Below, piece by piece: positions 4,154 to 33,829 of a DNA stretch of 64,000 bases. The stretch lies in the IMG/VR virus record IMGVR_UViG_3300046028_008994. One strand, written 5' to 3'. Position numbers and translations under genes: made by a program. A model generated the notes under the pieces. It did not search any database. It was not told where the DNA came from and was given only the letters and a program-made list of their open reading frames with translations. Source of the DNA: a virus. Position 1 is the stretch's first letter; every line of letters begins with the position of its first letter.

Positions 4154-4176
4154 GGATAAGATTGTATGTTCACATT

Positions 4177-4323
4177 ATGAAAAATAAATTAGAAATAATA
4201 ATAATCTTATCCATGGTGATGTTTGTAGTAATGTTAGTAGCTAAACATTTATTTGGAATTATTTGTATGGGTGGAGCTGTAATTGCAAGTATAATGACTT
4301 ATAGAGAATATATGGGGAAATAA
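4177..4323 (+). CDS. Small two-helix membrane protein (48 aa), not in ORF track
   Basis: MKNKLEIIIILSMVMFVVMLVAKHLFGIICMGGAVIASIMTYREYMGK; promoter TTTG 4141-4144 / TATGTTCAC 4165-4173. Confidence 0.65.
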   Translation: MKNKLEIIIILSMVMFVVMLVAKHLFGIICMGGAVIASIMTYREYMGK

Positions 4324-4327
4324 AAAT

Positions 4328-4407
4328 AGTCAGGTGGCGGAAAGGTAGCGCAGAAGCAAGACATAAAAATCAAGCCGATATTGCAAGTTCAAATCTTGTC
4401 CTGACTA
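4328..4407 (+). ncRNA. tRNA-like RNA, copy 1 (no anticodon arm)
   Basis: Acceptor AGTCAGG/CCTGACT+A; D-arm GCG-GAAAGGTAG-CGC; T-arm GCAAG-TTCAAAT-CTTGT; middle shows no obvious stem. Confidence 0.75.
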
Positions 4408-4424
4408 CTAAATAAAAAAAAGTT

Positions 4425-4586
4425 ATGAAAGAAGCATACATATTAATAAAACAATACCCAGGTTCAGAGAAATTAGGTACAATATTTACATTTAGTAAGA
4501 GTTGGGGTAAGTATAAAACAAAAGATAAAATCAATGGTAAGTGGGATAAAAACTATTTTCTAAAAGAATATTACGAAGCTCTTTAA
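4425..4586 (+). CDS. Small hypothetical protein (53 aa) between tRNA-like copies 1 and 2
   Basis: MKEAYILIKQYPGSEKLGTIF...; not in ORF track. Confidence 0.65.
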   Translation: MKEAYILIKQYPGSEKLGTIFTFSKSWGKYKTKDKINGKWDKNYFLKEYYEAL

Positions 4587-4590
4587 ACAT

Positions 4591-4705
4591 AGTCAGGTGG
4601 CGGAATTGGTAGACGCTATACCGATAAACATTCATAGAAATATGGATGTGTAAGGTATGATTAATCATGGTGGATTAAATGCAGGTTCGATTCCTGTCCT
4701 GACTA
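4591..4705 (+). ncRNA. tRNA-like RNA, copy 2 (anticodon arm replaced by a GAAA-capped long hairpin)
   Basis: AGTCAGG/CCTGACT+A; Leu-type D-arm GCG-GAATTGGTAGA-CGC; TATACC..GGTATG enclosing ACATTCATA-GAAA-TATGGATGT; variable arm TTAATC/GATTAA; T-arm GCAGG-TTCGATT-CCTGT. Confidence 0.85.
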
Positions 4706-4745
4706 CTCATTTGGAACCACAAAACATAAATCGTATGTTCACAGT

Positions 4746-4904
4746 ATGAATATTAAAACCAAAGTCATAACATTATTAGTATTAACAAGCATAACATTTG
4801 TTGTACTATTAGCATTTAGAGACATCATGGGGATGTTTTTAATGTGTATTATTTCAATTTATTTAGGAGTAGCTCTCAAATCAATCAAACAATATGAACA
4901 ATAA
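4746..4904 (+). CDS. Small two-helix membrane protein (52 aa), not in ORF track
   Basis: MNIKTKVITLLVLTSITFVVLLAFRDIMGMFLMCIISIYLGVALK...; promoter TTTG 4710-4713 / TATGTTCAC 4734-4742. Confidence 0.65.
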   Translation: MNIKTKVITLLVLTSITFVVLLAFRDIMGMFLMCIISIYLGVALKSIKQYEQ

Positions 4905-5010
4905 ATCAATAACAATGAACCCAACAGACAGGATCAAAGTGGGGATTATCACCACATTCACAGTTGCATTAATAGTGTTTATTACACTGTTAAGTACAAA
5001 TAATCTTTAG
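4894..5010 (+). CDS. Small single-helix membrane peptide (38 aa)
   Basis: ...DRIKVGIITTFTVALIVFITLLSTNNL; overlaps the previous stop region. Confidence 0.5.
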   Translation: MNNKSITMNPTDRIKVGIITTFTVALIVFITLLSTNNL

Positions 5011-5031
5011 TGCTGTTTTATTATTAAGGTT

Positions 5032-5054
5032 GGGGTGCTCATAGAGCATCCCTT
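5032..5054 (+). terminator. Hairpin, probable terminator
   Basis: GGGGTGCTC-ATA-GAGCATCCC followed by TT. Confidence 0.5.
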
Positions 5055-5072
5055 CTATTACGAACAATATTT

Positions 5073-5378
5073 ATGATTATGAAAAAGCAAATATTAAATG
5101 AAGAATTTAAACGCATGCAAAAACTTGCAGGCATAAAGGAGATAACAGTAAGAAATCCAATCCCAACATATGATGAACTTAAGATAGGGGATAAACTACG
5201 AGCAACTAAAGATCATCCTCCATATGTTATGAGTGGTGATGTGTGGAAAGTAGAACGTCTTGGCCAGTTTGGTCAATTAAATTTTGTTCAAGGTCAAGGA
5301 AAGGCACGTACTATGATGGGCAGTTACCATATTCAAAGAATGCTAGATTATGCAGCATTTAGGTATGTACAAGAATAG
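5073..5378 (+). CDS. Putative head-associated protein with RMQKLAGIKE leader and SH3-like body
   Basis: Late motif TATTTAT at 5068; N-terminus ILNEEFKRMQKLAGIKE; LKIGDKLRA. Confidence 0.65.
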   Translation: MIMKKQILNEEFKRMQKLAGIKEITVRNPIPTYDELKIGDKLRATKDHPPYVMSGDVWKVERLGQFGQLNFVQGQGKARTMMGSYHIQRMLDYAAFRYVQE

Positions 5379-5397
5379 TTAATCCGGTTCTATATTT

Positions 5398-6096
5398 ATG
5401 ATTATGAATGATGAATTTAGACGTCTACAGGAACTAGCAGGCATAAAGGAGATGAAAGTGGATAATCCACTTACAGTTAATATTAAACGTCTTGAAACAG
5501 GAGATAAACTGATAGTAATTAAAACAGTATACTGGGATGAAGAAGGAGATAAACCAACATTAACACCCCAACAAGGAGAATATGGGGTATTTACATATAA
5601 GGATGATGTGTGGGAATTAAAAAAAGATAATATTTTAGTGGCAACATGTATTCAAAGTAATGATCCATATTCTGTAGGTAATACAATATTAATTGCAACA
5701 ATTATCTCAATATCAAGATTAGGAGCATTTAAACATATTAGAAAGTCTGAGGTAAAGGAGATAAAAATAGGTAATCCAATAAAAGTAGACCCACGTAGGT
5801 TAAAAGTAGGAGATAAGCTCCGAGTAAAGAAAGAAGTGTATCGGGTTTCCGATCCAGAGAATCCTCGTAGCCCTAGCCTTTATTTCAATACTGCTGAAGA
5901 AGCTAATGCTGTAGAACCTAGAGGTAACAGATTATCATATATTGATGTGGGTGATGTTTATACTGTAACAGGATTTGCCCCAGGAATTGATCCATCTAAA
6001 CCCAAAATCTATCTAGAGTGCCGTGAAATAGGAGATGATATAGGTCCCACTACAGCATTAAGACTAATTAATTTTGGTGTGTTTGAGTATGCCTAA
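5398..6096 (+). CDS. Paralog of 5073 with RLQELAGIKE leader and two SH3-like repeats
   Basis: TATTTAT at 5393; repeats KEMKVDNP...RLETGDKL and KEIKIGNP...RLKVGDKL. Confidence 0.7.
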   Translation: MIMNDEFRRLQELAGIKEMKVDNPLTVNIKRLETGDKLIVIKTVYWDEEGDKPTLTPQQGEYGVFTYKDDVWELKKDNILVATCIQSNDPYSVGNTILIATIISISRLGAFKHIRKSEVKEIKIGNPIKVDPRRLKVGDKLRVKKEVYRVSDPENPRSPSLYFNTAEEANAVEPRGNRLSYIDVGDVYTVTGFAPGIDPSKPKIYLECREIGDDIGPTTALRLINFGVFEYA

Positions 6097-6153
6097 ATAA
6101 TATTTGGATACACAATATTTTATTTGTATGTTCACCCCATAATAAATAACAGT

Positions 6154-6531
6154 ATGCAAATAATTTTAACACCACAAGAAAGCGAAGAATTTTTTTACAA
6201 TGCCCTATGTAATGGTTTATCTGAAATGAATGGCTACGGCTTAGAATTCAATTACAACAAAGACCATTATGCTCAAGCAAAATCAAAACTCACAAGCCCA
6301 TGCTTTGAAGACGTGTTGATGCAAATCCTGAGAGACGGAAACACATTCGGGTTCGAAGATGTTGAGTGCGATGGAGAGTACAGCAAGCAGATCACCCTAG
6401 AGGATGTACACACTAAAATGTCCAGTGTAGATCCAGAGCGCCTACTAGAAATGAAGAACGAAACCGACGATGCAGGAACAGCAGATGTGATCCTTCAGAC
6501 CATAATGTACGGTGAAGTGATTTTCGGATAA
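6154..6531 (+). CDS. Hypothetical early protein
   Basis: Promoter TTTG 6103-6106 / TATGTTCAC 6127-6135; C-terminus DAGTADVILQTIMYGEVIFG resembles conserved phage proteins. Confidence 0.7.
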   Translation: MQIILTPQESEEFFYNALCNGLSEMNGYGLEFNYNKDHYAQAKSKLTSPCFEDVLMQILRDGNTFGFEDVECDGEYSKQITLEDVHTKMSSVDPERLLEMKNETDDAGTADVILQTIMYGEVIFG

Positions 6532-6555
6532 TAGGATCACGCCCCACAAAACATG

Positions 6556-6586
6556 AAGGCCGGGACCAATGGGTTCCGGCCTTTTT
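6556..6586 (+). terminator. Strong intrinsic terminator
   Basis: AAGGCCGGGACC-AATG-GGTTCCGGCCTT then TTT. Confidence 0.8.
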
Positions 6587-6588
6587 GT

Positions 6589-6720
6589 CTCTAGCGGGTC
6601 TGGGGCTCTGGCCCCTAGAAAGAGGGGGGGGTCTATCTGTTGGCCGTACGTACGCCGTACGGTATACATAAATAGTAGAGCCCCACGCATGCCGTTGTCC
6701 ATATACCGTATGCATATATG
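6589..6720. repeat. Cluster of palindromes and inverted repeats with a G8 run
   Basis: CGTACGTACG 6645-6654, CCGTACGG 6655-6662, GTATAC 6662-6667, TACGGTATA/TATACCGTA 6658-6666 and 6702-6710, GCATGC, ATGCAT, CATATATG; G8 at 6624-6631. Confidence 0.7.
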
Positions 6721-6906
6721 TCAAAAAAAGTGTGATTAATTTATAGATCGAATATAGGTATAACCCGCCGACAAATATATACAAATATACCAACCGCGAC
6801 AAAACATAATCCCAAAATCCAAATAAGCCATAATTGGATTATTGATTCCATATAGGCATTTTTTCTCAAAAATCGCAAAATCAAAAAAAGATTTCTTTAA
6901 TAAAAA

Positions 6907-6939
6907 TTTGGCTATATGAAAGGATATACGTATATTTAC
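6907..6939 (+). promoter_or_regulatory. Promoter for tRNA-like copies 3-5
   Basis: TTTG 6907-6910, N20, TATATTTAC 6931-6939. Confidence 0.7.
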
Positions 6940-6951
6940 TACATAAAATAT

Positions 6952-7028
6952 AGTCAGGTGGAAGAGTTTGGTACTTCGCTCGGTGGGAAACTGCTGAGAG
7001 GCCACAGGTTCGAATCCTGTCCTGACTA
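6952..7028 (+). ncRNA. tRNA-like RNA, copy 3 (anticodon loop replaced by GAAA tetraloop)
   Basis: AGTCAGG/CCTGACT+A; D-arm GAAG/CTTC; CTCGGTGG-GAAA-CTGCTGAG; variable loop AGGCC; T-arm ACAGG-TTCGAAT-CCTGT. Confidence 0.85.
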
Positions 7029-7035
7029 CTAAAAT

Positions 7036-7176
7036 ATGAAAACTATGAAAGAAGCATTGAAAGTTATTTTATTATTCAAAAAACCAACATGGGATGATTA
7101 CAGATTACCATATATATTTTTTGGAATAATTGGGTGGTCATTGATTATATCCATTGTAATTGAAATGATAAAATAA
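7036..7176 (+). CDS. Small membrane protein (46 aa) between tRNA-like copies 3 and 4
   Basis: MKTMKEALKVILLFKKPTWDDYRLPYIFFGIIGWSLIISIVIEMIK; not in ORF track. Confidence 0.6.
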   Translation: MKTMKEALKVILLFKKPTWDDYRLPYIFFGIIGWSLIISIVIEMIK

Positions 7177-7183
7177 ATAATAT

Positions 7184-7310
7184 AGTCAGGTGGCGAAAAG
7201 ATATTGATAATGCAGTTGCAACTAAATATCGTGGTAGACGCTATACGTAGAACACAACCGTTATTAAAATAGGGCGTGTGTTCGTACAGGTTCGAGTCCT
7301 GTCCTGACTG
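7184..7310 (+). ncRNA. tRNA-like RNA, copy 4 (hairpin inserted in D-loop, no anticodon loop)
   Basis: AGTCAGG/CCTGACT+G; D-loop insert GATATT..AATATC; long arm GAACAC..GTGTTC; T-arm ACAGG-TTCGAGT-CCTGT. Confidence 0.8.
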
Positions 7311-7326
7311 CTAACATAAAAAAGTT

Positions 7327-7548
7327 ATGAAACAAAAATATGTAACATGTAAAAATGCTTCTGAATGTGATTATACTCTTCATAATATGAAGGATTACCT
7401 TGTTGTTGCTTATGATACACAACCTTATGGTATTGGTTGGGTTGTAATTTTATTACCTAATGGTAATACTAAATGTTACCCTAAAACCAAGTTTAGTAAA
7501 GTGTTTGAAAAACAGTCAGGTGGCGGAATGGTAGACGTAGGCCGTTGA
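7327..7548 (+). CDS. Small SH3-like protein whose 3' end reads into tRNA-like copy 5
   Basis: VTCKN....YTL...KDYLV......G...YPK.KF pattern; C-terminal QSGGGMVDVGR is translated tRNA-like sequence. Confidence 0.6.
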   Translation: MKQKYVTCKNASECDYTLHNMKDYLVVAYDTQPYGIGWVVILLPNGNTKCYPKTKFSKVFEKQSGGGMVDVGR

Positions 7549-7623
7549 AAGTTAAGTGGTTCAGAGTTGGTCGTCTGATTACCTAAATTAGTAAACATAC
7601 AGGTTCGAATCCTGTCCTGACTA
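7514..7623 (+). ncRNA. tRNA-like RNA, copy 5 (three small hairpins in the middle)
   Basis: AGTCAGG/CCTGACT+A; D-arm GCG-GAATGGTAGA-CGT; GGCCG..TGGTT, CAGA..TCTG, TTAC..GTAA; T-arm ACAGG-TTCGAAT-CCTGT. Confidence 0.8.
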
Positions 7624-7628
7624 CAAAG

Positions 7629-7826
7629 ATGAAAAACAAAAAATTATTTACATATTTTAGAGAAGGTGACTACTGGATGTGCTATAGTCAAAAACTAAAA
7701 ATAATAGGCTATGGTAAATCAAAGCAAGACGCTTATGAACTGTTCCTATTTGTTTGGAATTATATATTAACCGAATATAAACACAAGAAAAATGAAGTAT
7801 CTAAAACCAGAAGAAATTCTAAATAA
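7629..7826 (+). CDS. HicB-like antitoxin N-terminal-domain protein (tentative)
   Basis: FREGDYWMCYSQKLKIIGYGKSKQDAYELF resembles the HicB pattern E-d-g-y-x-a-y-x-p-x-L-x-i-x-g-y-G-x-T-x-e-e-A. Confidence 0.5.
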   Translation: MKNKKLFTYFREGDYWMCYSQKLKIIGYGKSKQDAYELFLFVWNYILTEYKHKKNEVSKTRRNSK

Positions 7827-8403: not shown

Positions 8404-8428
8404 AAGCCCCTTTTCAGGGGCTTTTTTT
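8404..8428 (+). terminator. Intrinsic terminator
   Basis: AAGCCCC-TTTTCA-GGGGCTT then T-tract. Confidence 0.8.
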
Positions 8429-8615
8429 ATTTTAGTTTGGCAATAAGAAAAAAAGGCGCTATATTTATAACATAACAATGCAGTACCACGATGCTTCCCG
8501 TAAGAACAGCACACTTCAGTGGTCTTTTCGTCAAACAAGTGAATAGCCCAAGGCATAAGCTAAATTGACACCCCTAAATAAGACTACTTGATCAATAGAC
8601 ACTGTTTAGGATTTG

Positions 8616-8688
8616 GCCACTTTAGCTCAGCTGGTAGAGTAACTGATTTGTAATCAGTAGGTCGTTGGTTCGATCCCGACAAGTGGCT
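8616..8688 (+). tRNA. tRNA-Thr(UGU)
   Basis: Cloverleaf: GCCACTT/AAGTGGC, anticodon arm ACTGA-TTTGTAA-TCAGT, GTTGG-TTCGATC-CCGAC. Confidence 0.92.
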
Positions 8689-8793
8689 CCCGGATATTAA
8701 TATATCGAGAAACGCTTCTTTGGTAGATATATTAGTATAAACAACCAGTCACTGTAGTCTCTAAGGAGCGGTGTGAACGAAGAAGCAAAAATT

Positions 8794-8862
8794 GCGGTGG
8801 TAGTGTAATGGTAACATTCAGGCCTCATAAGCCCGAGTCACGGTTCGAATCCGGCGACCGCA
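8794..8862 (+). tRNA. tRNA-Met(CAU), degenerate or pseudo
   Basis: Loop CTCATAA and TTCGAAT are present, but there are mismatches in the acceptor (G.G), anticodon stem (A.C) and T-stem. Confidence 0.6.
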
Positions 8863-8868
8863 ACAAAT

Positions 8869-8942
8869 AGGTCTATGGTGAAATGGTATCATAATGAGCT
8901 CCAACCTCATTGTTTAGGGTTCGAATCCTTATAGGCCTGCCA
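8869..8942 (+). tRNA. tRNA-Trp(CCA), 3' CCA encoded
   Basis: AGGTCTA/TAGGCCT-G-CCA; ATGAG-CTCCAAC-CTCAT; TAGGG-TTCGAAT-CCTTA. Confidence 0.92.
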
Positions 8943-9014: not shown

Positions 9015-9911
9015 ATGGACAAACTTATGAAAGTCTATAATTTATCAGGAGGAGCCACTAAAATTGGAGCATTATTTGCTAAATCAGAGCGAATTATAAA
9101 AGAATTTGGATATAGGCCAGACATTATTACTGGTGTATCTTCAGGTGCTTTATTATCTTTACCTATTGCCTTAGGTAAGTGGGATCAATTAAAGAGTTTA
9201 GTACTTAGTATTACTCCAGATGATATATTTGATAATAAACCTGTAAATAAAAAAGGACAAATAACTTTCAAAGGTGTATGGAGATTGTTATTAGGTAAAC
9301 CTTCGTTAGGAACTCAAAATAATTTATATTTAAAACTGTCTAGTTTAGTCACTGAAAAAGATTTCTATAAATATGTGAATGGCGATTATCCTAAAATATA
9401 TGTTGGAGTAGTTAATTTTAACACAGGTGGATTTGAATTAATTGATATTAGTAGTTGTACTTATGATCAATATTTAGATTATACAATGGCTTCTGCATCA
9501 ATTCCTTTTGCTGTTGAGGGTGTTGAAATTAATGGTGATATATATTTTGACGGAGGTGTATTACACCACACATGTACTAATGAATTAATAAGAAAATACA
9601 AAGATAAAATAACACATTGTATTACAGTATTTTCTAGACCAAAAACAATCGACACTTCTTACGAGCTATTTAGTCAAATTGATATAACTCAAGTATTAAA
9701 ACAATATGAATATATTACAACATCTTTTACAAGTCTTAATGATCAAAAGATAGAAAAAGAATTGTGTAAACAATATAAAATAAAAAATTTACAAGTATTT
9801 AGTCCTAAGGTATTAAAATCATTATATGATACAGATCCTGATAGGTTAAAAGAATTATATGTAAGAAGTTATAATATAGAAGATAAAAAATATTACACAG
9901 ATTATATATGA
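9015..9911 (+). CDS. Patatin-like phospholipase
   Basis: SGGATKIG oxyanion loop, GVSSG nucleophile elbow, ASASIP, FDGG. Confidence 0.9.
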   Translation: MDKLMKVYNLSGGATKIGALFAKSERIIKEFGYRPDIITGVSSGALLSLPIALGKWDQLKSLVLSITPDDIFDNKPVNKKGQITFKGVWRLLLGKPSLGTQNNLYLKLSSLVTEKDFYKYVNGDYPKIYVGVVNFNTGGFELIDISSCTYDQYLDYTMASASIPFAVEGVEINGDIYFDGGVLHHTCTNELIRKYKDKITHCITVFSRPKTIDTSYELFSQIDITQVLKQYEYITTSFTSLNDQKIEKELCKQYKIKNLQVFSPKVLKSLYDTDPDRLKELYVRSYNIEDKKYYTDYI

Positions 9912-10149: not shown

Positions 10150-10674
10150 ATGGATAATTTAACTTTAGAAAGAATTAAAACACTTCACCCAGATATAAGA
10201 ACTGAGGCTTTACAGATGTACACTGAAATATGTTCTGTGTTACCTAAAAATGTAATTTGTAGATTTGCTCATACTCTTAGAACTAATGAAGAACAAAATC
10301 AACTTTATGCTCAAGGAAGAACAAAATTATTTGATAGTAAAGGTAAAAGATTAGGTATTGTAACTAATGCTAAAGGTGGTCAAAGTTATCACAACTATGG
10401 TTTAGCTATTGATATTGTTTTATTAGTAGATAGAGATGGAAATGGTACTTATGAATCAGCATCTTGGGATGTAAATGGTGATTTTGATAAAGACGGTGTA
10501 GCAGATTGGAATGAAATTACTATAATATTTTTAAAATACGGTTGGAAATATCTTATAGATAAAAAAGGTAAAAGATGGGATTTTCCTCATTTTCAAAAAA
10601 CCTTTGGTAAAACAATTAAACAACTACAAACAATTAAAAAACAACCTGGAACCTCGTATCCTTTGTTTAAATAA
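10150..10674 (+). CDS. Endolysin, peptidase M15C (L-Ala-D-Glu peptidase) family
   Basis: LRTNEEQNQLYAQGRT, VTNAKGGQSYHNYGLAIDI, DFPHFQ. Confidence 0.9.
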   Translation: MDNLTLERIKTLHPDIRTEALQMYTEICSVLPKNVICRFAHTLRTNEEQNQLYAQGRTKLFDSKGKRLGIVTNAKGGQSYHNYGLAIDIVLLVDRDGNGTYESASWDVNGDFDKDGVADWNEITIIFLKYGWKYLIDKKGKRWDFPHFQKTFGKTIKQLQTIKKQPGTSYPLFK

Positions 10675-29996: not shown

Positions 29997-31043
29997 ATGG
30001 CATTTAAAGCATTTCAACCAACAGATATTGTAGTAAGTAGTGATTCAATTACAGCTACATTGTGGTCTACTAATACACCTTCATTAACAACATTTTTTAC
30101 CTCTTCTACACAGATAGCAAGTACAGCAGGTAATTATTATTATAATATTTTTCAAACAGCATCAACACAAATAGGTGCTGAAGTACAATTTGCTATAGCT
30201 TATGGTAATACTAATGGAAGTGGTAGTTTAAATTTTAATAACTTAGTAGATGGTTATTCTCCAACTTCTACAATCTATGGTCAATATCAAGATTTAGTTT
30301 TAGGAGATGAAAATTCTAATTTTATTTTTGGAGCAATTACTTCATCTGAATTTATTGCAATTTCTTTTGATAGATCTAGATATAAAGAATCATTATTTTT
30401 AGGTTCATTAGCATTAACACTTAAAGGACAAGCAGCATCTTCAGGTTCTGTTACTTTAACAGATAATAGTAAATATGTAAGTTCTGTTGTTTATACGAAT
30501 GGCGGAATGAGAGTATTTCAATTAATGTCGGGGTCTCAAGGTATTAGATTTACAGGTTCAGCAACAACAGCAGATGGATTTTCAAAAACAGGTTCTTATG
30601 GTTGGTTCTTACCAGATATTGGAACTATATTATTAAATCCGAGTGCATTAAGAGCAGTACCAGCTGACGGAGGTATAGGATTTTTATTTAGTGGTTCTGC
30701 AACAGCATCAGTAGCTCCAATAGCACCACCACTAAGAGATATTTACACAGCAATTAGTGGAGGAGCTTCATTTTTAATTAATTCACAAGAAACTATTACA
30801 TCAGATTATATATTTGTAAGACCACAAAGTTCTGAATTTAATTATTCTGAAAATCCAAGTTTTATTGCAGGTTCTACAGGTGAAGTAATATATAGTGATT
30901 TTATTAATAATCCACAAACATATATTACAACTGTAGGTTTATATAATAATAATAATGAGTTATTAGCTGTAGCTAAATTATCAAGACCATTATCTAAAAA
31001 TTTCACATCAGAAGCTCTTATACGTGTTAAATTAGATTTTTAA
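29997..31043 (+). CDS. Virion structural protein (baseplate/fibre attachment type)
   Basis: C-terminal YITTVGLYN.NNELLAVAKLSRP. Confidence 0.65.
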   Translation: MAFKAFQPTDIVVSSDSITATLWSTNTPSLTTFFTSSTQIASTAGNYYYNIFQTASTQIGAEVQFAIAYGNTNGSGSLNFNNLVDGYSPTSTIYGQYQDLVLGDENSNFIFGAITSSEFIAISFDRSRYKESLFLGSLALTLKGQAASSGSVTLTDNSKYVSSVVYTNGGMRVFQLMSGSQGIRFTGSATTADGFSKTGSYGWFLPDIGTILLNPSALRAVPADGGIGFLFSGSATASVAPIAPPLRDIYTAISGGASFLINSQETITSDYIFVRPQSSEFNYSENPSFIAGSTGEVIYSDFINNPQTYITTVGLYNNNNELLAVAKLSRPLSKNFTSEALIRVKLDF

Positions 31044-31048
31044 AATGA

Positions 31049-32029
31049 ATGAGCGTATACAAACAATTTCAAGCATCTGATATAATTGTTTCTCCATTCG
31101 AGGTAAATAAATCATTTACTTTTAATGGTGCTGCTTCATTCACAGGTTCTAATGTTGGTATTGATAGATTTTTAGGTTTAAATACAGGTTCTTTATTTAA
31201 TCCACTAAGCGATCCAACAACAGGACAAATATCTACTCAATACCAAAGATTAGTTTATAGTTCTATTAAAGAACTGTATTACTCAAATTTTTTAAATTCA
31301 ACAGCAAGTTTAGGATCTCCAGTAACAACAGCAAGTTTAATACCTGGAGCAAACTCAGAAGGAGATGTTTTAGTAGGTCCTACATCTTCTGCAGGTAGAT
31401 ATTTTAATTATCCTCAAACAACTTTAACTTTTGAACATTATCTTCCTACAGCACCTAATTTATATATTGGTGTTTTATCAATTCCAGCAAAATTATTTGG
31501 AAATTATATACAACCTGGTTCATTTAGATGGAGTGCAGACAGTGGTTCGATTAATGATGATGGAGAAGGAAATTTAATATTTTCTTCTACTCAACAAATT
31601 TGTGGTCAAATATTTTATTCTCATGGGATTGCTGTATTAACTAGTGATTCAATGCCATTAGCTGATACTTATGGAACTGGAATATTTGGTTCTTCTGTTT
31701 ATGGATTATCTGATAGTATAGTAATTGAAAATTTTATAACATCATCTAACGTAACTTGTTCATTTTCATCCTCTCTAACAATTTATGAAACACAATATAA
31801 ATGTACAGCAAGAGAAAATGAATTTAATTTTAGTTTAAATCCATCTATAATTTCAGGTTCTGAAGGTATACCATATAGTTATGTAACATCATCTTTATTC
31901 TCACCATATGTAACAACAGTAGGATTATATGATGAAGATCAAAATTTATTAGCAATAGGAAAATTATCACAACCATTACCTTCATCGCCTACAACAGATA
32001 CTACAATACTTATTAATATAGATAGATAA
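31049..32029 (+). CDS. Paralog of 29997
   Basis: C-terminal YVTTVGLYD.DQNLLAIGKLSQP. Confidence 0.65.
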   Translation: MSVYKQFQASDIIVSPFEVNKSFTFNGAASFTGSNVGIDRFLGLNTGSLFNPLSDPTTGQISTQYQRLVYSSIKELYYSNFLNSTASLGSPVTTASLIPGANSEGDVLVGPTSSAGRYFNYPQTTLTFEHYLPTAPNLYIGVLSIPAKLFGNYIQPGSFRWSADSGSINDDGEGNLIFSSTQQICGQIFYSHGIAVLTSDSMPLADTYGTGIFGSSVYGLSDSIVIENFITSSNVTCSFSSSLTIYETQYKCTARENEFNFSLNPSIISGSEGIPYSYVTSSLFSPYVTTVGLYDEDQNLLAIGKLSQPLPSSPTTDTTILINIDR

Positions 32030-32032
32030 ATT

Positions 32033-32482
32033 ATGAATAATTGGTTATACGAAAATAAAGAAATAATATCACTGGATGATTTCCCAACCGACACTTTTGG
32101 GTATATATACATGGTAACTCATACTCCGAGCGAAGTATCGTATTTAGGGAAAAAATCGCTATATCACAACGTAAAGCGCAAATTAACCAAAAAAGAATTA
32201 GCAGAAATGCCCGTAACAAGAGGACGAAAAGTATTAACAGAAATTGTTAAAAAAGAATCCGATTGGAAAACATATTTTGGGTCCGCAAAACCAATCTTAG
32301 CACTGATAAAGGACGGTAAACAAGAGGAATTTACCCGTCAGATACTACAGTTGGTACCCAATAAAAAATTACTAACATACTATGAGTGTAAATATATGTT
32401 TACTCATGGTGTGTTAGAAAATCCTGATAAATGGTTTAACGACAATATTTTAGGAAAATTCTACAGTAAAGACTTTTTATAA
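32033..32482 (+). CDS. GIY-YIG-superfamily nuclease-like protein
   Basis: FGYIYMVT......YLGKK, SDWKTYFGS, FTRQIL, NDNILGKF. Confidence 0.65.
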   Translation: MNNWLYENKEIISLDDFPTDTFGYIYMVTHTPSEVSYLGKKSLYHNVKRKLTKKELAEMPVTRGRKVLTEIVKKESDWKTYFGSAKPILALIKDGKQEEFTRQILQLVPNKKLLTYYECKYMFTHGVLENPDKWFNDNILGKFYSKDFL

Positions 32483-32494
32483 TATTTATAACAA

Positions 32495-32851
32495 ATGAAA
32501 CTAACAGATTTAAGAAAACTAATTCTAGAAGAATTAGCAAATATCCAAGAAGAAGCACACATCCCAGTAGATGAAATTGGTAAATTTTTTGTAGTTAAAA
32601 AACCTAAAAAAGGTATGACTAAAGAAAATATGGTTCAAGAAGCTACTGTTTTTGATGATATTAAAGCAGAAGAAACATTGGGTGTTTATAAAAATAAATC
32701 TGAAGCAAATCGTTTAGCTGGTGAAGCATTAAAATCATTTGAAGATCAACTTAAAGAAGTTGAAACATCAATGGAAGAATATAGAAGTGCTCAAAAAGCT
32801 ATTAAAGAAAAAGCTGAGGAAACAAAAGCAAAAATCAAAAAAATAAAATAA
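32495..32851 (+). CDS. Hypothetical protein with MKLTDLRKLILEE leader
   Basis: Late motif at 32483. Confidence 0.7.
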   Translation: MKLTDLRKLILEELANIQEEAHIPVDEIGKFFVVKKPKKGMTKENMVQEATVFDDIKAEETLGVYKNKSEANRLAGEALKSFEDQLKEVETSMEEYRSAQKAIKEKAEETKAKIKKIK

Positions 32852-32860
32852 TTTTAAATT

Positions 32861-32896
32861 AAGCTTGGAAAACCAAGCTTTTTTTATTATATTAAG
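32861..32896 (+). promoter_or_regulatory. Terminator/promoter overlap upstream of primase
   Basis: AAGCTTGG-AAAA-CCAAGCTT-T5; CTTG 32864, N20, TATATTAAG 32888, ATG 3 nt later. Confidence 0.65.
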
Positions 32897-32899
32897 GTT

Positions 32900-33829
32900 A
32901 TGTTAAATCAACCTTTAATAGCTTTGGTTAATTCTGTATTAGGAACAGGTAAATCTACTTCTAGAGGAAATTATGCATATCATTGTCCTTTTTGTAATCA
33001 CCATAAACCAAAACTAGAAATTAATTTTAACGAAAATGAAAAGGGTGAAAATCCTTGGCATTGTTGGGCATGTGATAAAAAAGGTAAAAAAGCATATCAA
33101 GTTTTAAAACTATCCCCATTATCACCTGAAATAATATCAGAATTAAAATCACTTACTAAAGGAGGATTCTCAGAAAAACAAATAACAGTAGAGGAAAAAG
33201 TAGAACTACCTAAAGAATATAAATCACTATTGAATATTAGTCAATTAAATATTATAGGTAGACATGCATTATCATACTTAAAATCTAGAAATATATTAGA
33301 AGAAGATATAATTAAATATAATATGGGTTATTGCGATTCAGGACCATATGCTAATATGATAATTATTCCTTCATACGATGCAAATGGTAAATTAAATTAT
33401 TTTACAGGACGTTCATTTAAAAAAGATTCATTTATAAAATATAAAAACCCAACAGTATCACGTGATATAATTCCTTTTGAATTATATATAAATTGGGAAT
33501 TACCAATTATATTGTGTGAAGGACCATTTGATGCAACAACAATTAAAAGAAATACTATCCCACTACTAGGTAAAAATATACAATCTAATTTAATGAAGAA
33601 AATTGTAAAATCTAGTGTTGACAAAATATATATCGCCTTAGACAGGGATGCTCAAAAACAAGCCTTGAGTTTTTGTGAAAAGCTAATGTCTGAAGGTAAA
33701 GAAGTTTATCTAGTAGATATGCAAGATAAAGACCCAAGCGAAATGGGTTTTGAAAACTTTACAAAATTAATTCAAGACACTTATCCATTAACCTTTTCTA
33801 GTTTACTAGGAAAAAAACTAACATTATGA
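32900..33829 (+). CDS. DNA primase (DnaG-type, zinc finger + TOPRIM)
   Basis: CPFCNH...WHCWAC; LCEGPFDA; IALDRDA; KDPSE. Confidence 0.9.
   Translation: MLNQPLIALVNSVLGTGKSTSRGNYAYHCPFCNHHKPKLEINFNENEKGENPWHCWACDKKGKKAYQVLKLSPLSPEIISELKSLTKGGFSEKQITVEEKVELPKEYKSLLNISQLNIIGRHALSYLKSRNILEEDIIKYNMGYCDSGPYANMIIIPSYDANGKLNYFTGRSFKKDSFIKYKNPTVSRDIIPFELYINWELPIILCEGPFDATTIKRNTIPLLGKNIQSNLMKKIVKSSVDKIYIALDRDAQKQALSFCEKLMSEGKEVYLVDMQDKDPSEMGFENFTKLIQDTYPLTFSSLLGKKLTL

Follow-up and report, generated by a model that had tools for sequence, protein, structure and literature searches.

Stable RNAs of tRNA-like shape have been known from phage tRNA clusters for 50 years, and their purpose has never been found. 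The viral sequence IMGVR_UViG_3300046028_008994 from IMG/VR (64,000 nt, referred to in its full length as the window) poses this question again: it carries five small elements that are framed like a tRNA and have no anticodon loop. What could a phage use such RNAs for? On balance, we favour the answer that diverse functional RNA inserts owe their maturation and stability to a chassis derived from tRNA-Leu. Here, chassis denotes the tRNA frame, i.e., acceptor helix, U8, the G18G19-containing D-arm, the 15-48 tertiary pair and the T-arm, and insert denotes the middle that it encloses. An original prediction, made from the DNA letters alone, had described the five elements and interpreted them as tRNA decoys or scaffolds.

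Sequence reading and pattern searches yielded exactly five copies on the + strand of the window; the lengths given first include the discriminator:

Copy 1, 4328-4407, + strand: 80 nt (79 nt plus A73); 30-nt A-rich insert without a stable predicted fold; T-stem GCAAG/CTTGT.

Copy 2, 4591-4705, + strand: 115 nt (114 nt plus A73); Leu-type D-arm; folding z of the whole element -4.34.

Copy 3, 6952-7028, + strand: 77 nt (76 nt plus A73); class-I-like D-stem of 4 bp; G15/C48 pair.

Copy 4, 7184-7310, + strand: 127 nt (126 nt plus G73); D-loop hairpin GATATT..AATATC and 7-bp hairpin GAACACA/TGTGTTC.

Copy 5, 7514-7623, + strand: 110 nt (109 nt plus A73); Leu-type D-arm; three small hairpins.

The acceptor AGTCAGG/CCTGACT, U8-G9, a GG in the D-loop and the T-arm RCARG-TTCRANT-CYTGT are common to all five copies. 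Likewise, each copy shows the hallmarks of the tRNA fold (RF00005), namely a 7-bp acceptor helix, a D-arm with G18G19 and a T-arm with a TTCRANN loop. The 3' motif TTCRANTCYTGTCCTGACT and the 5' motif AGTCAGGTGG have five matches each in the window, compared to 0.15 and 1.16 matches, respectively, expected from shuffles. Copy 4 has G as its discriminator and the other four copies have A; with the trailers ACT, ACT, ACT, GCT and ACA for copies 1 to 5, none of them encodes CCA. A 5-bp anticodon stem with a 7-nt loop (U33, R37) was found in no copy. ARAGORN calls copy 3 (6952) as the only one of the five, as tRNA-??? with the 4-nt loop 'gaaa'. The Rfam tRNA model, with a gathering threshold of 29 bits, assigns 47.9 bits to copy 3, 38.5 bits to copy 2 and 37.4 bits to copy 5, treating the middle as an insertion, and has no match in copies 1 and 4 even at E <= 1. 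At this same cutoff, Rfam reports nothing but tRNA for the five copies, apart from sub-threshold noise (RAGATH-19, ar35). All of this is in good agreement with the original prediction, which had listed the shared elements, the missing 7-nt loop, the missing CCA and the four A73 residues, and had expected undetermined or pseudo calls.

The inserts differ from copy to copy. In copy 2, a 5-bp helix resembling an anticodon stem (ATACC/GGTAT) is followed by an internal loop and a 9-bp helix with a GAAA cap, and a further hairpin, TTAATC/GATTAA, resembles a long variable arm. Where a tRNA has its anticodon arm, copy 3 bears an 8-bp arm closed by a GAAA tetraloop. The D-loop hairpin of copy 4 lies between A14-A17 and G18G19, while its 7-bp hairpin occupies the anticodon/variable position. 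Of the three hairpins of copy 5, one has 7 bp and an 8-nt loop, and the other two have 4 bp each. Folding thus agrees with the predicted GAAA-capped arms and the extra D-loop hairpin. The more general claim that four of the five middles pair holds in part: by folding energy, the inserts of copies 2 (z -4.75) and 3 (z -2.84) alone beat shuffles; the hairpins of copy 5 are supported by comparison, as every variable position of a predicted stem keeps its pairing across six relatives; copy 1 has no stable fold.

How widespread are these elements? An IMG/VR scan with the 3' motif recovered at least 120 contigs, and a generic tRNA-frame search was then run over the fetched loci, which are given L-numbers in the following. 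Among the matches listed, 199 unique sequences are of the AGTCAGG type; they measure 53-190 nt, and their median is 102 nt. In all, the family numbers at least 200 such RNAs from DNA of lake phages. Up to seven copies were found in one locus (L013), compared to five in the window. The elements share the strand of the tRNAs and reside within tRNA clusters or next to them; in other loci they are interspersed with canonical tRNAs. A canonical anticodon arm (5-bp stem, 7-nt loop, U33, R37) is present in 4 of the 199 members. Together with the five copies, none of which has one, this bears out the predicted class of tRNA-shaped phage RNAs that do not decode. ARAGORN nevertheless assigns anticodons to 31 of the 148 unique elements tested, about one fifth; these assignments are spurious, and hence counts of phage 'tRNAs' in metagenomes may be inflated.

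When 185,579 species genomes were scanned, genuine elements turned up on contigs of metagenome-assembled genomes (MAGs) only, mostly from freshwater bins and many of them labelled Bacteroidota, and these contigs are probably phage DNA. No tRNA-shaped element with the chassis frame was found in the isolate genomes of this set, and the chassis therefore appears phage-specific; the sole tRNA-like match in an isolate, Hymenobacter montanus (L148), has no matching 5' strand. We also considered mimicry of a host tRNA. This was rejected: with no tRNA-shaped element of this frame in the isolate genomes scanned, the chassis does not copy a known host tRNA.

The family shows selection on the tRNA fold. 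U8 is conserved in 100%, A14 in 92%, U48 in 87%, A73 in 90% and C74 in 98% of the members, where U48 lies outside the search pattern. The Levitt pair covaries, with A15-U48 in 169 sequences and G15-C48 in 9 of 11 (Fisher 7e-10); copy 3 has the G15/C48 combination. Covariation is also seen in the acceptor and T pairs. A second IMG/VR scan, anchored on the Leu-type D-arm and leaving the acceptor free, yielded 72 non-canonical elements. Their acceptors are of 23 kinds, each fully compensated, and all seven pairs covary. The acceptor AGTCAGG occurs in 51 of these 72. The acceptor is thus a helix under selection at the RNA level rather than an invariant sequence, although one version dominates, and the invariance that had been claimed from the five copies does not extend to the wider family.

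The flanks carry signatures of tRNA processing. U-1 is found in 79% of the family, in 67% of the canonical tRNAs of the same loci and in 30% of the background. The family trailer consists of N73-C74 followed by A or T, and C74 is present in 100% of the canonical tRNAs in loci L001-L120 (n=187). This shared flank signature supports, without proving it, the idea that RNase P matures the elements and that their 3' ends arise as those of the genuine tRNAs do. With U-1, A73-C74, A14, A15-U48 and G18G19, features read by maturation enzymes are retained as predicted, fitting RNase P, 3' processing, CCA addition and possibly LeuRS. The canonical tRNAs of L001-L120 are peculiar in their own right: N73-C74 of their trailer is mostly followed by A or T (e.g., ACAA, ACTA, TCAA), and CCA is rarely encoded, which is an unusual, lineage-wide rule.

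If the chassis is what matters, the inserts might be arbitrary. The decoy reading of the original prediction would place the activity in the top half. Our data contradict a view of the middles as free filler, since inserts are conserved across phages and across chassis, with compensatory changes. The insert of copy 5 is found in 8 IMG/VR contigs with at least three unrelated contexts and flanks, and the element is about 93% identical in the nearest contigs. At L179:2434-2542, this insert sits within a different acceptor, GTCAAGG/CCTTGAC, with four pairs changed on both sides. Altogether, four pairs of elements share an insert in different chassis: copy 5/L179, L188/L023, L088/L028 and L035/L112. 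A relative of copy 1 (L031:6246) is 91% identical over the element only, its flanks being unrelated, and its T-stem is compensated to ACAGG/CCTGT. Exact-word scans of IMG/VR had no match for the insert of copy 2 (one 21-nt word) or that of copy 3; a metagenome scan with the D-arm of copy 3 revealed a relative, L275:1066-1143 on the - strand, in which one U to C change converts a G.U to a G-C pair and the GAAA-capped arm is kept, again amid unrelated flanks. Within insert clusters, double compensatory changes distinguish L002 from L054 and L014 from L065.

Diversity is considerable at the same time. Clustering of 216 sequences gave clusters of at most 3 members and about 190 distinct inserts. 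Collectively, these inserts are somewhat more structured than chance: GNRA hairpins number 47 compared to 20.3 +/- 4.2 in shuffles, internal T-arm-like hairpins number 6 compared to 0.36, and the mean folding z is -0.61 (p ~1e-11), with 11.5% of the inserts below -2. Two sites of the frame tolerate insertions, the anticodon/variable region and the D-loop before G18G19. At the latter, which is the site used by copy 4, D-loop insertions also occur in L032, L102, L082 and L070.

In the reading that we favour, the five elements would be small-RNA genes built on a chassis from a phage tRNA-Leu. They would be co-transcribed with early small open reading frames (ORFs) and tRNAs, cleaved by RNase P before A1, trimmed at the 3' end by the route of the genuine phage tRNAs, and completed by the host with CCA. 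The chassis would form the acceptor/T minihelix and the elbow of an L-shaped tRNA, while the anticodon and variable arms, and in copy 4 the D-loop too, would be replaced by an unrelated structured domain. The product would be a stable, tRNA-shaped RNA incapable of decoding. To this RNA, the chassis would contribute maturation, stability and perhaps recognition by LeuRS or EF-Tu, and the insert a specific activity, probably the binding of a host or phage protein or RNA.

A decoy inverts this division of labour. The conserved top half would absorb enzymes that act on the acceptor end or the elbow (toxSAS/CapRel, MenT-type nucleotidyltransferases, tRNA-Leu-specific nucleases) or titrate LeuRS, EF-Tu or the CCA-adding enzyme, and the anticodon arm would have been removed solely to spare decoding. 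Chassis conservation at the nucleotide level, with the dominance of AGTCAGG in 51 of 72 non-canonical elements with a Leu-type D-arm, speaks for such a role, as do the retained A73 and Leu identity set, the presence of several copies per genome (five in the window, seven in L013) and the location in the early region. A decoy needs no particular middle, however, and yet the inserts are conserved across phages, moved between acceptors and compensated. Moreover, the acceptor varies freely with compensation, such that a reader of its sequence is not required, and a Pfam/PHROGs screen recognised no defence or counter-defence gene beside the arrays. We therefore regard a pure decoy as unlikely. Of the predicted alternative of decoy or scaffold, the scaffold is the part that fits better, and the suggested link to toxSAS or MenT-type toxins is not borne out.

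From which tRNA does the chassis descend? Its tRNA origin is clear, and tRNA-Leu is the probable source. The D-arm matches the canonical tRNA-Leu of these phages, of T4 and of T5. L112:10981-11065 on the + strand is a canonical tRNA-Leu(UAA) whose acceptor, ACTCAGG/CCTGAGT, is one pair away from the chassis, and it may represent the working tRNA from which the family arose. With class-II tRNA-Leu, including the genes of the same phages, the chassis RNAs have in common the D-arm sequence, A14, A15-U48, G18G19, the T-arm, A73, U-1 and the C74 trailer; they differ in that the anticodon stem-loop is replaced and inserts of 20-140 nt are carried. The same phages possess separate normal tRNA-Leu genes with other acceptors.

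This origin raises the question of charging. In E. coli, LeuRS identity is conferred by A73, A14, A15-U48 and G18G19, and tRNA-Leu variants without anticodon and variable arms are still charged (PMC9976931). The identity set, including the class-II D-loop, is complete in copies 1, 2 and 5; copy 4 deviates by G73 and copy 3 by its class-I D-arm with G15-C48. By analogy to E. coli, copies 1, 2 and 5 could therefore plausibly be leucylated. One might go further and view the elements as leucylated effectors, i.e., CCA-added and LeuRS-charged RNAs that serve as aminoacyl donors, enter ribosomes like tmRNA (transfer-messenger RNA) or feed a tRNA-dependent transferase, with the insert directing them to their destination. 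The Leu identity elements of copies 1, 2, 4 and 5 (except G73 in copy 4), the A73 found in 90% of the family and the charging of minimal tRNA-Leu in E. coli (PMC9976931) are consistent with this idea. It is at odds with copy 3 and other members that have a non-Leu D-arm (G15-C48), with G73 in copy 4, and with the ORF screen of the window, which turned up neither SmpB nor a transferase nor any other partner protein. Furthermore, neither ARAGORN nor Rfam finds a tmRNA in the window, and the 3-70 pair of the five copies is U-A rather than G.U. We consider leucylated effectors quite improbable.

Could the elements simply be broken tRNA genes, that is, pseudogenes decaying from tRNA-Leu, or intron-bearing precursors that are spliced to normal tRNAs? 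The tRNA-derived chassis would be expected from either, and a few relatives look like working tRNAs. L020:9938(-), L059:1217(-) and L095:4078(+) are AGTCAGG-chassis members of 70 nt with a proper anticodon arm for Lys-UUU, and they differ among each other by a compensatory stem change, CCGAC/GTCGG vs CCGAT/ATCGG; the chassis may thus also host a working tRNA. Decay, however, would not replace the middle alone and spare the chassis, the 15-48 covariation and the flank signals in 199 sequences, nor would it leave inserts conserved and compensated. As the original prediction had argued, plain decay does not match the data: intact anticodon loops with random decay around them are not the pattern among the relatives, where four of 199 have a canonical arm and L275 retains the GAAA-capped one. 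No group I or other intron model in Rfam matches the five copies at E <= 1. Excision of the hairpin of copy 2 was tried as an intron and rejected, as it leaves a 9-nt loop without U33. Broken or intron-bearing tRNA genes are thus a very improbable source of the family.

The genomic setting in the window is that of a T4-like myophage, with a gp17-type terminase, a gp20-type portal and baseplate wedge proteins. Its nearest cultured relative is Flavobacterium phage immuto (portal identity 57.5%), in which no chassis element was found. From this portal match and the MAG labels, the host probably belongs to the Bacteroidota. The copies alternate with small ORFs in two units, the first with copies 1 and 2 and the second with copies 3 to 5. 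Neither array contains a terminator; the first one of the second unit is at 8404, shortly before the canonical tRNA cluster. Two features border this unit:

Promoter-like site, 6908-6936, + strand: TTGGCT-17-TATATT, recognised by its match to the consensus, 6-16 nt upstream of copy 3.

Canonical tRNA cluster, 8615-8942, + strand: Thr-UGU, Met-CAU and Trp-CCA, found by ARAGORN and Rfam.

The promoter-like site would start the transcription unit of copies 3 to 5 a few bases before A1. These copies end about 1 kb upstream of the tRNA genes on the same strand, and so the elements sit in the tRNA region of the phage.

In the family, elements often begin 0-20 nt past an ORF stop and end 10-30 nt ahead of the next ATG. 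This arrangement would fit a role as processing punctuation and recombination cassette. The tRNA shape would let RNase P and 3' enzymes cut polycistronic early transcripts, and the identical arms of 25-30 bp would let co-infecting phages exchange small ORFs and inserts by homology. Mitochondrial tRNA punctuation and the PeSL cassettes of T4-type phages are analogues. Besides the spacing, the alternation of window copies with single small ORFs, without terminators within the arrays, argues for punctuation, and the conservation of whole elements amid unrelated flanks argues for a cassette. On the other hand, many copies lie between tRNAs or other elements with no ORF nearby, conserved and covarying inserts are left unexplained, and compensated acceptors point to selection on an RNA helix, not on a DNA sequence. 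As the principal explanation, punctuation and shuffling therefore appear rather unlikely. The role is compatible with a scaffold that carries functional inserts, and the two may coexist. Two further ideas about mobile or integrating DNA were rejected: an attP or other integration site does not fit a T4-like lytic phage type in which no integrase was seen, and a miniature inverted-repeat transposable element is contradicted by flanks without a visible target-site duplication.

Several known RNAs invite comparison with a scaffold of this kind. In the annotation of phage T5 (GenBank AY543070), RNA1, RNA2 and RNA3 are described as 'tRNA-like stable RNA with unknown functions'. They resemble the chassis RNAs in their location in a phage tRNA gene cluster on the tRNA strand, and in having a long middle unlike tRNA (125-144 nt in T5) that is enclosed by an acceptor-like helix and a canonical T-arm. 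RNA1 has a Leu-type D-arm, GCCGGAAUUGGUAGACGG, and a T-arm around an 80-nt body, and the T-arm of RNA2 is nearly that of the chassis family, with an internal T-arm-like hairpin in addition. In contrast to the chassis family, the three are single genes in one phage group without a common chassis bearing many inserts. All three fall below the Rfam tRNA threshold, which three of the five window copies reach, and past generic tRNA features no sequence relationship exists. The same T5 region (30284-33083, L177) holds eight annotated stable RNAs of unknown function, RNAI, RNAIII, RNAIV, RNA1, RNA2, RNA2H, RNA3 and RNAX.

In T4, the roles of RNAC and RNAD remain unknown (PMC3014915, PMC9697503). Like the window copies, RNAC (species 1, 139 nt) and RNAD (species 2) are small RNAs from the tRNA region of a T4-type phage, and those of T4 are known to be stable. 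The 3' end of RNAC consists of a canonical T-arm, CCGGG-UUCGAAU-CCCGG, and an acceptor-like 3' strand. Unlike the chassis RNAs, RNAC has no recognisable D-arm, and its acceptor helix contains two U.U mismatches; it is present as one copy, whereas the chassis family is multi-copy with interchangeable inserts.

Outside of phages, tmRNA and the bacterial Y RNA YrlA are likewise non-decoding and join a tRNA-like acceptor/T-arm module to another domain. However, tmRNA needs G3.U70, pseudoknots and a tag ORF, while the 3-70 pair of the chassis RNAs is U-A. The tRNA-like module of YrlA is permuted, such that both termini of the RNA lie in the Ro-binding stem; its covariance model (RF02553) has no match in the five copies at the gathering threshold or at E <= 1. 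The tRNA scaffolds of Ponchon and Dardel reportedly follow the same design principle for RNA expression in E. coli: the anticodon arm is swapped for an RNA of interest, which is processed and stabilised by tRNA enzymes. These scaffolds are a laboratory tool, and their likeness to the chassis RNAs is one of functional analogy. Our literature searches did not find a single chassis with well over a hundred interchangeable inserts. The original prediction had not recognised the elements as a described family. In view of T4 RNAC/RNAD and T5 RNA1/RNA2/RNA3, this does not hold for tRNA-like stable RNAs as such; a family of this size appears to be undescribed.

A number of observations weigh against the notion of functional inserts on a common chassis. 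The inserts of copies 1 and 5 fold no better than shuffles. As clusters have at most 3 members among 216 sequences, covariation within inserts rests on few pairs. No target or partner was found for any insert, and no Rfam motif matches; a search of the 64-kb window for antisense targets of the five inserts returned merely 11-12-mers at chance level. The AGTCAGG chassis is nearly identical at the nucleotide level, beyond what the fold alone needs, which may be due to gene conversion, recombination or a sequence-specific reader. The host is uncultured, and the rules for LeuRS and RNase P are thus extrapolated from E. coli.

A scaffold with functional inserts nevertheless fits better than a decoy, given that the inserts are conserved and compensated across phages and chassis. 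We tentatively put forward a stronger version as a possibility: one chassis might be a natural display system by which a phage lineage expresses, matures and stabilises well over a hundred different structured RNA domains, each a natural aptamer or mimic directed against a factor of the host or of a rival phage, with inserts exchanged by recombination in the constant arms. Such a system would be an RNA-level counterpart of hypervariable accessory-gene cassettes. If the inserts are effectors, phage small RNAs would gain a new class, and the technology of engineered tRNA scaffolds would have a precedent in nature. In any case, a family with one chassis, about 190 inserts, several copies per genome and inserts that move between chassis makes the old question of the stable RNAs testable: the inserts could be pulled down by their own tRNA handle to find their partners, and charging and processing can be assayed directly.

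Turning to the neighbouring genes, the small ORFs that alternate with the copies have no Pfam match, and the 65-aa ORF at 7629-7826 has none at E <= 0.05. Among the 40 window ORFs screened, no tRNA-related enzyme was found in Pfam or PHROGs; matches were obtained for baseplate, terminase, portal, RecA/KaiC-like ATPase, patatin-like lipase, M15 peptidase, primase and PD-(D/E)XK nuclease. The patatin-like phospholipase (9015-9911; Pfam 9.4e-14) and the M15 peptidase of D-Ala-D-Ala carboxypeptidase type (10150-10674) directly follow the tRNA cluster. A search for relatives via the neighbouring proteins 9015-9911 and 5398-6096 returned none. A 73-codon ORF (7327-7548) has no earlier stop and extends 35 nt into copy 5, covering the 5' strand of the acceptor and the D-arm. 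If copy 5 were cleaved at A1, the mRNA of this ORF would lose its stop codon, unless the ORF is not real.

Candidate promoters and 5' motifs were noted in the window and in other loci. A box repeated in the window, GTATGTTCAC, is found at 4165-4180, 4738-4748 and 6127-6140. Two small ORFs have it 3 nt ahead of their ATG, and a third has it upstream; one box comes after copy 2. It is probably the early promoter of this phage, and its placement suggests leaderless or near-leaderless mRNAs. The motif TGACAGCTCGGAAAGACGAGCAACAT, a small hairpin with a GAAAG loop, directly precedes elements on the 5' side in L001, L013, L019, L028, L042, L054, L076, L094, L098, L113 and L120, and is absent from the window. 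In L021, L032, L040, L066, L079, L085, L107, L115 and L178-L183, a Bacteroidota-type -7 box TAnnTTTG (e.g., GTATATTTGCATT, CGTATCTTTGTGTC) ends 4-5 nt before A1, such that primary transcripts of these phages would begin right with the element.

Finally, L015:7997(-), L051:2259(-) and L074:585(-) represent a separate class of tRNA-framed RNAs of 155-175 nt. Their acceptor is TGTCAGG/CCTGACA or a variant thereof, and they combine a D-loop hairpin with the conserved core CACCCACTCGTCTCGTGGGCGCTGA..GGGTTGACCAC.

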